From positions 12,772,001 through 12,836,000 of the forward strand of contig CM102285.1 in assembly GCA_046563655.1 (NCBI GenBank): a stretch of 64,000 bases of DNA, in the 5' to 3' direction. The stretch's first letter is position 1, and the number at the start of each line of letters is the position of its first letter. The notes under the pieces are model-generated. The model was not told the origin of the DNA. It saw only the letters and a list, made by a program, of their open reading frames with translations, and searched no databases. This document shows positions 43,819 to 51,823 of this stretch, in pieces. The translations under genes and the position numbers were made by a program. The stretch is from Yuukianura sp. NJ FZ-2021. Taxonomy: Eukaryota.

Positions 43819-45394
43819 TTTAGGCGGCGGATGTCACCGGATAGCGGATACTTGCGGAAAGTGGATTAGACGACGGACGGTTGTTGTCAAGGTCAAAACG
43901 ATTCCACCTTGCCGAGGAGTGTGACACGACACAAACAGAATGACAGGATGAGATTCTCGTAGTCAGTGGTTGATTTCGAAGAGCAATGTGACACGGACAC
44001 CCTCCTCCGCCTCCGGCTCGAAGACGTCTGTCGGCCTCGCACGTGGGTTTCTAAAGTAAAGTAATTAAAAGCAAATTAGTGAATTTGAAGTAACAACTGA
44101 ATAAAGTTTAGGTTGAACTTAATTTGGAATTAGTGTCCCGCAAAAGTAATTAAGATAAAATAGAGTTCATGCTTAATAAGTGCTTTGCAGTTTGCCTTGC
44201 CAGTAACTTACTTGTGCAGTGTATTTTCCGTAACTCGAACGATCTTTAAGTAAAAAATTGAATTCCGGAGGACTCGAAGAACACAACCCCAAGATGCCAG
44301 TGACTAGTGACACAGAAAGAAGAGGAGAGATCAGCGAAGCTAAGATTTTTTAGAAAAATTTAAAAAATTTGATCTTTTTTTAAAATCCAACTCCTTCCAG
44401 CCTCTGCCGCCACCCAAATCAATAGAAATAGGAAAACTCACACAGCCACTCGTACGGACATTAGTTTTTTTTTTTATTACAGAACAGAATCTCCTATTCC
44501 ATTCCAATTCATCTCCACCTCGTGTGAAACCGGTTTTGCAAAATGACACATGATGCTACCCTGACAGAGGTCAAAAGGTCACTTACTGCCCAAGATTACA
44601 CAATTACTAGTTACTAGAAAAAAGCTTCACTTCAGGCAATATGAAATTAGGTTTTTAAGGATAGCGATGCATTTGAAAAAGTTCTTTGAATGTTGGATGC
44701 TAATTTAGTATTACTATTACTAAATATAAGTTAAGCTGAAGAAGCATTTATTCGCAAACTAATGACCTTTGACCTAGCGTACCTAAACTAAACAATTTTA
44801 GAATTCGTTGAATTCAATTTTTGAATTTTGGGAGTAAGTTCTATTCTATTTTGCTTATATCAAATTGACATTATCAATAATGCTTAGCTGCCTAGTGCCA
44901 ATCAACTATTAATTAACAACTAATCGATTAACAACAAGCAAAATCTTCTGCAAAATTAGGACAAATATAAATAGGACATCTTAAATATTTTTTTGAATTC
45001 TAGCAAATTGTAAAGAATGATGAACTGGATTAATTTTGAAACGTTACGGATTTTGAACTAAACAGTTTGCAAAACTTAATTCCCTTCAAACTTCATTATC
45101 TAAGCCGGAATTGGTAAGTGTTATAATTAAAGCGTATTAAATTTGACATAGAAAGCCACATTACCAACAGCACACTAAATGTGCGTACTATTATCGAATG
45201 TAGTGGATTTGCTATTTGTTAATCGATTGATGATGACATTACTTGAATCCGAATTTGGGCACGTAAGAGACGGTGACTGTGCAGAATGTCCTTCCGGTAA
45301 TGACCTTGAGTACTTTTTGGAATTCTAGAATTTAAAAAATAACCATTACTCTATTGACAGTGGAAGACCCGAAAAATATCGGTTTTTAGCAAAC

Positions 45395-46267
45395 TCACCA
45401 ACGTAAGGCCCTGGATCCAAGAACTTCGTCCAGACAAAGTGCCAGTTCCAAGTCAGTTTTGTTGACTGTTTTGCGTCGTCCATGATGAGCCATTGTATTT
45501 GCCACGAGAAACAATTTCTCCAAGTAGGCTTCAGCTACATCCTGCAAAATGGTTATGGCGTCCTTACCCCAACGGAAGTCTCCATAATCCTCTGCAATTG
45601 ACTTGACCAAGCGTTTGAACGGTGCCTTTGGTATTGAAAAGTCATCAACTTCCTTGCAGGTTCCGTCGCAGAAGAATAGTCTCTCTCTGTTAATTCTTGT
45701 GTCTCCCTCCTCGTCCAATAGTGTAGAGTTGAACGGAAGTTGCTGGACAGGAAAAATGGGTGATATTGGACTTGGACTGTGTTGTCCAGCAAGGAAGCTG
45801 GAGTAGCGATGTGTTGCGGGTTTCGGAGGTGGTTGGGCATTTGGAGCTGCTCCAGCAACTGGAGGAGATGGATGAAGAGCTGGGGGTGGCGGTGGAGATC
45901 CAAGAAACGTACGAGCTGGAGTTCTGACATTAGTAGGAGTCGTCGGTGCTGCTAGTAATTGACGAGGAATGGCTGGAGTGACATTTCGAGCAGTTCCGAC
46001 CGTTGGCTGTACTGGAAGAGGTAGGTTTGATGCGACGTTGCGAGGTAATCCAATGCTGGGGACTGTAGGAGCTCTCAATGGTGGAACACCGGGATTTGGT
46101 GCTGCAGCTATTGGCAACGGTGGCACACTAACGGCAGCATTCACTGCTGGTACTGGCGGCACACCACCTACGGCGGCGTTAGGTTGTGATTCAGATGCTG
46201 CTGTGTTCTGACCTTGACCGTTCCCCTTTTTTGGTAACCGGTATTTCGGAACCGATTTCCGAGCCAT
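45395..46267 (-). CDS. Intronless divergent histone H3-fold protein (cenH3/CENP-A-like or novel H3 variant), 290 aa
   Basis: C-terminal IPKAPFKRLVKSIAEDYGDFRWGKDAITILQDVAEAYLEKLFLVANTMAHHGRRKTVNKTDLELA aligns by eye with H3 [66 protein letters not shown]; long Pro/Ala-rich N-tail starting MARKS. Confidence 0.85.
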   Translation of the reverse strand: MARKSVPKYRLPKKGNGQGQNTAASESQPNAAVGGVPPVPAVNAAVSVPPLPIAAAPNPGVPPLRAPTVPSIGLPRNVASNLPLPVQPTVGTARNVTPAIPRQLLAAPTTPTNVRTPARTFLGSPPPPPALHPSPPVAGAAPNAQPPPKPATHRYSSFLAGQHSPSPISPIFPVQQLPFNSTLLDEEGDTRINRERLFFCDGTCKEVDDFSIPKAPFKRLVKSIAEDYGDFRWGKDAITILQDVAEAYLEKLFLVANTMAHHGRRKTVNKTDLELALCLDEVLGSRALRW

Positions 46268-46507
46268 TCTTGGTAGGAATGTCTCTCGTTAGCTCCGAAA
46301 CGACAACTCCGAAAATTCTAACACACTCACTCTGCAAAGGGCCAACTCCGCTCCCCAACTAAAGCTGATGTCATGATAATTTCCATTAGAAGGAGAGGTT
46401 AAAAAACTTGTGAAGGTGTCCTAGATTACAGTAATTTATCTGACATGACCACGATCTTTACAAAACAAAAGAAAAAAGATTAAAAACTTAAAAGTTATCC
46501 AAAGGTA

Positions 46508-48260
46508 TTATGTTAGAAGAACGTCTGTCATGGCATATTTCCATGTCCAGGTTCTCGCTTCGCGTTCAAAGGCCTTCCGATCTCTTTGCCTCAATCTTCC
46601 AATTGCCGGTTCCATACAGGGTTCACACGGGTCAGTGAGGAGACTTTGAATAGACAGTAGTGTTTGAGGGATAAACAAAGCCAGAGTCCAGTTATGTTGA
46701 ATACAGTCTATTCCAATATCTCCATGTCTAGAGATATTGGGATGATAAACTTTTGTAAGGAATCGAACAAGAGGTGGCTTCAAGGGGTAGCTGGAAGATA
46801 CAAAAAAATCAAACATTAACAAACATCTAATTATTATATGAAGGTCACAGGTCACCGAAAATGTACTTACTCATGAGGAATCTTAATATTGAGGTAGAAC
46901 ACACCACCTTGATAGGGACTTTGTGGTGGACCGATAATCCTTGCCAGCCAATTGTAATTGAGATGATCTAGTGGCATGGCTTCAATACCATCAGGATGAT
47001 CTGATGTCAACCACTTCAATTCCTTGGCAAGGCGAACGGAACGTAATGATCGAAATGGCAAGACCTGGTCACCGACTGCAGCCGAGATTGAAGGAATGTT
47101 CATTTTGATCCAACATGAGCAACATGACAAGCTTTCCAAGCTAAAAAAAAAGTTAAAATTCCAGTAAGTTCAGATTCACACCAGATTGAATAGCATTAAT
47201 GTTTGGGTTTTGAGAATCCTATTTGTAAACTTACAATGACACGAACACTTGATACCAATCCATCACTTCATAAATGGGACTGAACAGTGGCCACTTTTGG
47301 ACGACAAATGATCTCCAAGTTTCGTTCGGAACGAGTTCCAGAATAATTGATTTCCATCGAAGACGAGCTCTTGAAGCAAGCAGGAGAGAGACGGGATCTA
47401 GCTTCTGGAAAATCATTCTCCAGACTAAAAATTATATCGAATTGAAATTGAATACTGGCTGGTGTTGTGGTGTTTAGTCAATAAAAAAAATTCTTACTCT
47501 CGGGTGGCAGCATCGAGGTCAAGTCTACGTCAGGGGCCTTCTGGTATGTCGCCAACGGAGTAGTAAGTAAGTTTATACGACGTGTTGTTCTTTCCTGCTC
47601 ACGAGATTCTGAGGTGGAATTGATCGAAGGAAACACTTCATCCATCGGTGAGTTTTCCAACGTCTGATTTTTTGATCCTGATGCTACTGGAGTTGACCCT
47701 GGAGGCTCCTCCGAGCTGCTGCTCTGCTCGACCCTGTTTTCTCTGTGCATACTGGACGTATTTGGGACATCTATGGCTGGAAGCTCCGCGCTACATGCGT
47801 TTATCAAGTTTTCGTCCTGGACATTTTCGTTATGGTTATTCCTTGGGAAACGTGCAGCCGCTACAGTAGGTGGTGCGTCTTCTGATGGTTCGTCATTCCC
47901 AGAGTCTCCATCATCTTTCTAATCAATAATGAATTTCAAACAATTTATGTGTTTGATTGAATTACATTGAAACGCTAGTCAAAGAACTTACCTCAGTCTC
48001 TGTCTGAGATATGTAACCCCAATTTTGTTGCGAAAGTGATATATTAAAGTGTTCCACGTAGAGAAAATCATGACAAATTTCGCAGAGTGGATCCCCGATC
48101 GACGATCCATAATATCCTTCACAGTGATAACAAGCTTCCGCCTGCTAACAAAACAAACAGCATTCGATTATACAGCAAAAATTGTGGTGAAGAATTTGAA
48201 ATGATTTTTTACCGTGGAGTTCATATATTGCTTGTCAACTTGATCCGGATTCAATGACAT
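46508..48260 (-). CDS. morgue: Morgue ortholog: zinc finger + F-box + ubiquitin-conjugating enzyme variant, 6 exons, about 453 aa
   Basis: Exons 48260-48213, 48141-47992, 47918-47498, 47424-47235, 47140-46871, 46790-46508 (1362 nt). CYHC..CEIC finger; F-box LPPEIWRMIFQKLD; UBC fold GPPQSPYQGGVF..YPLKPP..HPNISRHGDIGID with Gly at the catalytic Cys position, the defining Morgue architecture. Confidence 0.92.
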
Positions 48261-48935: not shown

Positions 48936-49724
48936 ATGCAGAAATATCGGGAAGAGGCTAAAGAGAATCCAGGCACCCCGGTCGCTCTGGTGGGCAAGAT
49001 CAATTCACCCCACCTACTAGAGGACGGTGCTGGAAGCCCTCGAAAACCGTTGACCCCACGTCAAGTTAAACTGGAGAAGAAACGAGGAAACGGAAAGGAT
49101 GTCTGCTTGCTTCCCCGGATAAAATCGATTGATGGTACCGAAAATGGACTCAATTCTGAAATGTATCTACACGAAGGAGACCGATGTCTTAAGAAACCTG
49201 ATCAAGACCAAGAGCCTAACAGTCTGCAAGAAGCAAGCAAAAGTACAACTCAAACTGACCGAACTGACTTGGATCTCATCACTGGTGGTTAGTAGTTTCC
49301 AATACGGTACCGAGCAACCAAAGTCTGTTCTGTCCCTCCCTAGTCAGCAGCAGTGTCATTTGGTCTTTGTTCTAACCTCTATATCACTATTTTTTTTTGT
49401 AGAAATCGCACCACTGGAATATTACAAGCAATTGGCAGAGCGGCGGGGATTGGCGCTTGAGGAGACACTCATGGAAAACCAAATGCTCTGTGAAAGAATT
49501 GAGGCCCTGGAGGAAGAAAATCGCCAACTTGAAGAAATGTTGGAGGATGCCAAGACGTTGGCTGAAATGGTTAACGTAAGTACTGCTGCCCATTTAGTAA
49601 CTGAAAAAATACTCGTAATGTATTAAGCTAAGAACGAAATCTGACTCCATTCCAGGCGCTTAGCGACGCTGCCAATGATTCCGGGATAGTTCGGGATACT
49701 ACTTTCAATACCTCTATCGACTGA
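48936..49724 (+). CDS. geminin: Geminin, 3 exons
   Basis: Exons 48936-49287, 49403-49575, 49656-49724. D-box-like RKPL; DLI..EIAPLEYYKQLAERRGLALEETLMENQML coiled coil typical of the geminin family. Confidence 0.88.
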
Positions 49725-50054: not shown

Positions 50055-51531
50055 TTAAAACTTCCAAGGCTCCTGAATAACAAGAATCCCCTCTGAACTT
50101 CTTCCGATTGTCAAATGATCTGGGTAAACTCCTTTCGGCAAGTCAACGTAAATTGACACCACTCTTGCTCCAGAAGCATACTTTTTATTTTCCTCCTTAT
50201 TCAAGTGAACTCCATCAACCTGGAAGTTAGGAATTGATTTCTAATTTATCATGATCAGTACCGATCCTCAGGGTTTATCAATCAAGTTCTATTTAGATTG
50301 TTACCGTAAGACGACTTCCATTGATGCGTAAAAAGATTTCATTGTCTCCGAATCCCTTCATATTTACAAGAGTGCAGAAACGACGAAATCCGGACGGGTC
50401 ATCTTTCGGGTCACTTTATCAATTGCAAACAGAAATTAACTTAATTTTTATAATTTACTTGCATCTTTACGGTTTTGTGTTACTGTAGGTCAGTCAAGGG
50501 AGCAAAGGAATTCGGAAAGTTGACACTCTCGTAAGATTTTCCCACAATCGTTTTTCCTCCGACGCAGTAAATCGGTGTATATCGTGGGTTATCCGCTTCT
50601 GGGCCAATCAAAACCTACAAAAACGCAACACTTTAGTTACTTTTAACTAATTAGTAATGAATAATGTAATGTTAAAATGGTATTTATTGAATTCTAGTAC
50701 ATTTTTCCGGGGAAGGACGAAACTATGTCTCCGATCATCCAGGAGTTCCTGACGTTCCAGTACCAATTTGAGCATGAACTCACACAGCAATCCCTTGTGA
50801 CTTTTGGGGTCAAATTCACTCAAACGACCTTGGGTCTGTGACTTCTCTTCATCATACAGATCCGAATAGAAAGCAAACGCATCTCTTCTGTTCTTCAGTG
50901 CTTCGTCACACAACTTCTTGACCAGAAGACGTTCCTGTTGTGTTTTTACTGGCAACTTCGTATTACATTGTCCATCTTTGCTCTGACTACAAATTGCTTT
51001 GGAGTTGGAGGAAACTGAGCCACCTTTGAAGAATCGTTCGGGGATCTTGTAGTTATAGAAGGGGTCACTGACGCTCCACTGTTGATTACTCCAGGAAGAA
51101 GGGATTCGACTCAAGCGGATTTGAGGTGTGTTGATTGTGGAATTAAACTGGCTTAGAAACGGATTGTACTCGCTTTTCCTGTTGCTCGACGGTGATGTAA
51201 TAGAGGATGACCGGAGATGCTTCGAAGTGTTACTTGGGCGACGACTGGGTCGGGATCTGGACCGTAGAGTGATTTTGGACAGCGTGTCATGTAGAGTTGG
51301 CAGAACTGTAGGAATGTCGACGGTTGACTTGTCATCTTGAGCTGACCCTACCGATGACATTGGCGTCTGGTTTTTGCTGGCGATAGGTGGTGTTGTTTGG
51401 GCAGAGGCTCCCAAAGGCGGGGATTTTGAACGACTTCTAAAACTAGCCAATGAGCGACTGCTCCTTCCACCGCCATTGCTTCCACTTGACCCTTGACCTT
51501 TGAAGAAGTGTCCACGCTGAGACGGAAACAT
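50055..51531 (-). CDS. Alpha-crystallin/HSP20-domain protein with a long Ser/Arg-rich N-terminal extension, 4 exons, about 411 aa
   Basis: Exons 51531-50701, 50614-50484, 50413-50305, 50219-50055 join in phase (1236 nt). Last two exons, too short for the ORF track, give FCTLVNMKGFGDNEIFLRINGSRLTVDGVH..YVDLPKGVYPDHLTIGRSSEGILVIQEP, matching the ACD pattern (GF..EI, LTVxGxH, LP..V, S.EGIL.I..P). Confidence 0.75.
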
Positions 51532-51823
51532 TTTCGCCAATCAATCTCTTCCCCTTAATTTAGTGAAGATTCTCCATAATCCGTTCCTCTGCCTGCCAAA
51601 GAAAATTTGACAGAAAAGAGCAACTTTTAACTTTGTTGGCTCAACGTAGCGACTCAAAAATAAATGTTTGGCAAACGTCGTTACGTTAACGGTTCAAATC
51701 AATTGAACTCATCAGTTTCTTTTTTCTCAGAGATTCAATTTCCAATTTATTTTAAATATTGAATAAGGACCGTACACAAAAGCAAGTATTGGCTTTGCCA
51801 AAATCAAACTACACACCACACAC

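Follow-up and report, generated by a model that had tools for sequence, protein, structure and literature searches.

The centromeric histones of the CenH3/CENP-A kind, such as Cid of Drosophila, the CenH3s of other insects, human CENP-A and yeast Cse4, join a fold derived from histone H3 to a tail that is not that of H3. Human CENP-A has tryptophan at position 84 and alanine at position 107. The in-silico criteria published for these proteins, as given in the available parts of PMC4359364 and PMC7598501, ask for a tail that has diverged, a lengthened loop 1 and the absence of the Gln, Phe and Thr found at positions 68, 84 and 107 of H3 (69/85/108 in the numbering of PMC7598501 and 69/85/118 in that of PMC4359364). 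The available text of PMC2995078 describes the loop 1 of Dictyostelium CenH3 as shorter than those of the other CenH3s, known and putative, and states that a CenH3 need not have the extension. The flexibility of the DNA ends in human CENP-A nucleosomes has been attributed to a short alpha-N helix, and the C-terminal LEEGLG tail of this protein binds CENP-C by hydrophobic contacts (PMC6776904, available part). In Drosophila, loop 1 contacts the DNA and the CAL1 chaperone and has been positively selected in one Cid paralogue, according to the available part of PMC5435080. The gene analysed here lies on the minus strand at 45395..46267 of a 64,000-nucleotide stretch of DNA, hereafter the window. 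Its protein has the same architecture of an H3-derived fold and a non-H3 tail, and it probably is the CenH3/CENP-A-type histone of its animal lineage or, if there are several copies, one of them.

The complete coding sequence was found to comprise 290 uninterrupted codons, starting with MARKSVPK and followed by a TGA stop at 45395-45397, and the frame is closed by another stop 7 codons upstream of the ATG. The encoded H3-fold protein (P0001) can be divided into several parts, all on the minus strand. The N-terminal tail, residues 1-185 (45713..46267), is without similarity to H3. It contains 22.7% proline, and its 14 K+R residues against 2 D+E give it a net positive charge; the long proline-rich tail reported in the preliminary description was therefore borne out, and no tandem repeats were found in it. 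Residues 186-209 (45641..45712) occupy the position of the H3 alpha-N helix and form an acidic, Cys-containing segment that is predicted to be unstructured. The histone fold follows, with helix alpha-1 at residues 214-225 (45593..45628), loop 1 at residues 226-234 (EDYGDFRWG; 45566..45592), helix alpha-2 at residues 235-262 (45482..45565) and an extended helix alpha-3 at residues 270-287 (45407..45460), which runs into the C-terminal LDEVLGSRALRW. At this end H3, as seen in the H3 repeat protein P0003, has a basic sequence of the RRIRGERA type.

The presence of a histone fold is far beyond chance, as the Pfam Histone model PF00125 matches residues 208-280 with an E-value of 7.6e-18 and 65.4 bits, the cut-off being 26.4. 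Weaker matches were obtained with two other histone-fold models, CBFD_NFYB_HMF (32.7 bits) and CENP-T_C (29.6 bits). The sequence search over all solved structures gave 193 distinct chains at E<=1, and 59 of the 60 matches listed were histone H3 chains (best E 5.4e-10), the remaining one being a Cse4-Scm3-H4 fusion at E 2.3e-9. The alignments to the H3 chains start at residues 206-209, and HMMER pairs residues 209-278 with H3 59-129 with a single gap, which falls in loop 1. In the best alignment, that to u65702, 31 of the 70 query residues are identical (about 44%), and the H3-repeat matches of the sequence library show 41-44% identity. The AlphaFold2 model, calculated for residues 140-290 from an alignment of 85 rows, placed the three helices at the positions given above with pLDDT of 95-98 across the block, the upstream part being low-confidence coil. 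The Foldseek comparison with the PDB also brought H3 chains to the top, with Cse4 of K. lactis at rank 40. The protein thus has the alpha1-L1-alpha2-L2-alpha3 order of an H3-type fold, with H3 chains as the most similar structures. Residues R69, R83, R116, T118, H113, D123 and L126 of H3 take part in DNA (minor-groove) contacts and in the H3-H3' four-helix bundle. All seven are retained in the HMMER alignment, so that a nucleosomal role together with H4 would be the natural inference.

The three diagnostic positions agree with CenH3. Lysine stands at the position of Gln68 in alpha-1, tryptophan at that of Phe84 in loop 1 and alanine at that of Thr107 in alpha-2, where FLVAN replaces the FEDTN of H3; the HMMER alignments to solved H3 chains confirm these changes, including the FED to FLV replacement, as they had been reported earlier. 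The CenH3 family likewise has these three residues replaced, and the W and A at 84 and 107 are those of human CENP-A. Compared with canonical H3 and H3.3, the fold is about 42% identical and the DNA-contact arginines and H113/D123 are kept, whereas the ARTKQTARKS tail, the alpha-N helix and the basic C-terminus are absent and E105 D106 is changed to LV. The C-terminal LDEVLG resembles the LEEGLG tail of human CENP-A, being hydrophobic and acidic as is the latter in the available part of PMC6776904.

The length of loop 1 was examined by aligning the fold segments of P0001 and of its 150 best library matches, with columns numbered by P0003. Between the I74 and R83 columns P0001 has 7 residues and H3 has 8, in agreement with the one-residue gap of the HMMER alignments; the longer loop 1 of the published criteria is thus not found, and the loop is shorter than that of H3 by one residue as had been described. 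It is less atypical for a CenH3 than was claimed. Of the other 150 best matches, 18 have a 7-residue loop like that of P0001, mostly in the form YG[DEN][FY]R, and 3 have a still shorter loop; this set is enriched for short loops because it was ranked by similarity to P0001. Long non-H3 tails were seen in some of the short-loop matches, P0043 (with the start MVRRKCVP), P0070 and P0082. A hand count of the PF-to-ALQ/ALH distance in the available part of the PMC4359364 supplement gave 23 for the CenH3 of the weevil Cyrtepistomus, equal to H3, and 24-25 for the CenH3s of other beetles, a mayfly and a scorpion, compared with 22 for P0001. The loop-1 extension is therefore not universal in CenH3, since that of Dictyostelium is short and that of the weevil equals H3, as far as the available parts of these two sources go. 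The Dictyostelium protein (H3v1, PMC2995078, available part) is a CenH3 verified by localisation, in which the N-terminal domain is extended and loop 1 is short, as in P0001; it differs in its amoebozoan origin and is not specifically related in sequence to P0001.

The alpha-N region gave a different result. The I/L.R.Q.ST motif before alpha-1 is kept in all the insect CenH3s compared in the available part of the PMC4359364 supplement and is absent from P0001. The region has 3 identities in 14 to H3 43-56, and no helix is predicted before residue 214, so the statement that alpha-N is unrecognisable was upheld; its replacement by an acidic, Cys-containing segment was also found as described, with 8 acidic residues and 2 cysteines among the 24 residues. 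The protein departs from the CenH3 family in both respects, the loop being one residue shorter than H3 and not longer, and no alpha-N or QKST-type motif being present. These two points would count against a CenH3. The loss of alpha-N is real and is the one truly unusual feature of the protein, and it is common to the single close relative, P0004, which also lacks the motif.

The N-terminal MARKS had been proposed to be a decoy for the methyl marks of H3. In the available part of the Drinnenberg 2014 supplement (PMC4359364), a hand count found RKS in the first six residues of 7 of 11 full-length insect CenH3s, and [RK]KS in the first seven residues of 9 of 11. The RKS-type start of P0001 is thus like that of these insect CenH3s, and as such a start is usual among them a decoy is unnecessary; the start looks like a family trait, and the decoy proposal was dropped. 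The tail is comparable to that of Cid5, which is described in the available part of PMC5435080 as variable and proline-rich. Its length of about 185-210 residues stands against 24 residues in the CenH3 of Tribolium (PMC7598501, available part).

The search for relatives was made by a full HMMER pass with P0001 over 1.84 billion cluster representatives, which gave 1914 matches at E<=0.001 and 16 at E<=1e-10. No self-match was found among these representatives, and the rows that scored best with more than one matched stretch were concatenated H3 repeats such as P0003 and P0017. The tail was matched by P0004 alone among the 1.84 billion representatives, which agrees with the divergent tail of CenH3. 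P0004 is a protein of 258 residues on a Logan assembly contig of 7267 bases, and BLASTP aligned it with P0001 at 6e-29 with 44% identity over 160 columns. The two tails share a block at residues 146-184 of P0001 (45716..45832, minus strand) with the motifs PKPA..R[YF]SS.L.G..SPSPI.PI and P.NST.L, and the folds share FSIPKA.FK.LV, RW, AEAYL and VAN. P0004 also carries K68, W84 and A107, has only 3 of 14 identities in the alpha-N region and reads LEELFEATAL where P0001 ends in LDEVLGSRALRW. In its loop 1, 9 residues separate the I74 and R83 columns, one more than in H3; as P0001 has one fewer than H3, loop-1 length varies within the family of the two proteins.

A FastTree tree was built from 129 non-redundant fold segments, after removal of rows that had over 15 gaps or repeated a trimmed sequence. 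P0001 and P0004 form a pair with support of 0.963; the next node has support of 0.0 and all the sequences are unnamed library segments, so the tree makes no statement on the deeper placement of the pair. The word-indexed protein search gave no match for P0001 alone at near lengths; the profile of P0001 and P0004 gave nothing beyond P0004 at near lengths, and at shorter lengths it gave only P0152, an ordinary H3-like fragment. None of the 449 pattern matches in a metagenome contig scan with the profile was confirmed. Only generic histone clusters came from the Protein Atlas; the best of them scored 0.89 and is found most often in Arthropoda, which is taken as a lead only. The literature search on CenH3 in mites, springtails and crustaceans gave nothing relevant among the matches listed. 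Among the better library matches there were also several proteins of 214-220 residues (P0016, P0018 and P0024) in which an H4-like and an H3-like part are joined, P0016 having the same short GDFRF loop 1. These we take to resemble the fused histone doublets of giant viruses, and they are unrelated to the present gene.

The polymorphism of the locus was analysed from DNA sequencing data, the locus being carried by at least five DNA runs from two studies; no RNA run was among the carriers listed, which speaks neither for nor against a function. Contigs of four runs were compared over 44800-47400; organism A contributed three of the runs, all of a single sample, and organism B the fourth. In the coding sequence eight substitution sites are listed. 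Six are synonymous, and every one of the four sites in the fold (codons 219, 220, 226 and 234) belongs to these, the two protein-changing variants being E186D and A93V; this 6:2 ratio comes from a sample, because only the best-supported differences are listed and 114 substitutions and 11 indels across 2601 bases lie beyond the listing. The sole indel listed in the coding sequence is an in-frame deletion of 12 bases at 46009, in the tail, whereas the 11 listed outside it are of 1, 2, 4, 5 or 7 bases. The GC content by codon position is 0.62/0.53/0.37 compared with 0.34 in the flanks. Contigs of the same sample over the tail differ from the window at 10 of 156 and 11 of 134 bases, and a 3'-flank contig differs at a similar 8 of 140. 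As the tail contigs are as divergent as the 3' flank and the fold variants are synonymous, the tail is changing fast while the fold is constrained, a pattern typical of CenH3. The stretch 45395..46267 is a real, intact and constrained gene, and judged by these patterns it looks functional. In X1, the contigs over 44800-47400 fell into identity classes of 99+% (25), 95-99% (19), 90-95% (7) and <90% (3), and divergent haplotype-like contigs of one sample cover both coding and flanking DNA. Either the sequenced source is pooled or very polymorphic, or close relatives are present in it.

The flanks of the gene were analysed for signals of histone genes. No Rfam family reached its gathering score anywhere in the window, and in the 3' flank (44700-45500) at E<=10 there were two snoRNA matches at chance level and no histone stem-loop. 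The gene therefore has no histone 3' stem-loop, in accordance with the earlier statement, with the CenH3 family and with a replication-independent histone gene. Downstream, a stretch of 497 bases is free of AATAAA and ATTAAA signals. Unlike the present coding sequence, the E2 and mitochondrial-carrier genes near it are divided among several open reading frames, and the gene had been called intronless among such neighbours; this stands for the coding sequence and has to be qualified 5' of the ATG, where a candidate GT..AG interval of 62 bases lies at 46269..46330 (minus strand) with a CTAAC branch-like site. This interval, which ends one base short of the ATG, is possibly an intron of the 5'-UTR, and the polymorphic indels found in it at 46289 and 46324, of 1 and 4 bases, show that it is non-coding. 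Were it spliced out, translation from an in-frame ATG further upstream would extend the protein by 19 residues, MEIIMTSALVGERSWPFAE, before MARKS.

LIM, Ig, Geminin and p24 domains in the neighbouring genes support a metazoan source. The Geminin coiled-coil exon (48936-49626, plus strand; PF07412, E 9.9e-07) is located about 3 kb from the gene. A two-exon UBE2D-like E2 gene with a Pfam UQ_con match lies at 46508-47169 on the minus strand and reads HPNISRHGDIGIDCIQHNW. The HMMER alignment of this E2 with UbcH5b chains puts Gly in the catalytic-Cys column and a Cys three residues on, and the top UbcH5b chains themselves read K in that column; these chains are presumably C85K mutants and the column presumably that of Cys85. 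The gene may encode a catalytically altered or inactive E2 paralogue, and an acidic Ser-rich open reading frame at 47478-47918 may be its N-terminal exon. A Ser-rich open reading frame of 297 residues at 50647-51540 (minus strand) had no Pfam match and no usable Atlas match.

The gene could in principle be a decaying or neutrally evolving H3-like retrocopy without function, and the single-exon coding sequence and the absence of AATAAA or ATTAAA in the 497 downstream bases would suit such an origin. This is very unlikely, as the frame is intact over 290 codons, 6 of the 8 listed coding variants are synonymous, the listed coding indel keeps the frame, the GC content differs by codon position (0.62/0.53/0.37 against 0.34 in the flank) and a relative of 44% identity keeps the tail motifs. 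It is extremely unlikely that the protein is a CENP-T-like kinetochore protein (PF15511) pairing with CENP-W outside nucleosomes. The architecture is similar, with a long, disordered, Pro-rich N-terminus and a C-terminal histone fold without alpha-N, and the CENP-T_C model matches residues 211-275 at a marginal 29.6 bits against a cut-off of 28.1. That match, however, spans positions 7-72 of the 108 in the profile and falls short of the full profile, the Histone model scores far higher at 65.4 bits and the fold is far nearer to H3, with an identity of about 44% to the best chain and 41-44% to the H3 repeats. The H3 residues for DNA contact and for the four-helix bundle are retained as well. 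The histone fold of CENP-T has a C-terminal extension of two helices, and there is no room for it here because the protein stops 3 residues past the predicted alpha-3.

A specialised paralogue or lineage-specific H3 variant, for example one restricted to the germline like Cid5 or Cid3 of Drosophila, is possible though doubtful. Such a protein would still form nucleosomes with H4, but in a restricted tissue or chromatin domain, and would not serve as the centromeric histone in general. The short loop 1 and the lost alpha-N are unlike the insect CenH3s in the available part of the PMC4359364 supplement, and duplicates of Cid are recurrent in Drosophila, where the male-germline Cid5 has a variable proline-rich tail (PMC5435080, available part). 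The divergent tail contigs from the same sample could be alleles or a second copy; since their divergence continues into the non-coding 3' flank at a similar level (8 of 140 bases), haplotypes fit better than a dispersed paralogue. P0004 has the same peculiar features, which makes the form older than one species, and no mark of germline use was found in the window. It is rather unlikely that P0001 and P0004 together represent an undescribed arthropod-type lineage of H3 variants without alpha-N and without the loop-1 extension. If they did, the protein would be either a CenH3 forming nucleosomes around which markedly less DNA is wound than in any CENP-A particle characterised, or a non-centromeric (e.g. 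germline) H3 variant beside a conventional CenH3.

The CenH3 reading is the best supported. The gene is intact, derived from H3 and constrained in its fold, it has a relative, and it lacks a 3' stem-loop of the replication type. It is best filed as a strongly diverged addition to the CenH3 kind, the points of note being the missing alpha-N and a loop 1 with one residue fewer than that of H3. The earlier interpretation as an unusual CENP-A is thus supported in part, the features called atypical being weaker than claimed. In the mechanism that we propose for a CenH3, the C-terminal histone fold would pair with H4 and make the centromeric nucleosome. The terminal turns of DNA would be held loosely, because an acidic unstructured segment takes the place of the basic alpha-N that binds the DNA ends, and this would exaggerate the effect of the short alpha-N in human CENP-A. 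The hydrophobic and acidic C-terminus (LDEVLG...) may offer a docking surface of the CENP-C type, and partners may be recruited or regulated by the long Pro-rich tail, in which the SPSPI block is conserved.

If the gene encodes the CenH3 of the lineage, the finding is mainly one of annotation, and it would provide an antibody or ChIP handle for the mapping of centromeres; the protein is absent from the libraries searched. The result would gain in interest only if CenH3 is believed to be absent from the clade of the organism, or if there is a conventional CenH3 in addition. The alpha-N helix and loop 1 are thought to shape the flexibility of the DNA ends and the recognition by the chaperone or by CENP-N. 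P0001 would be a natural CenH3-like histone without alpha-N and with a shortened loop 1, and as such it may serve as a test of which features of CENP-A are required.
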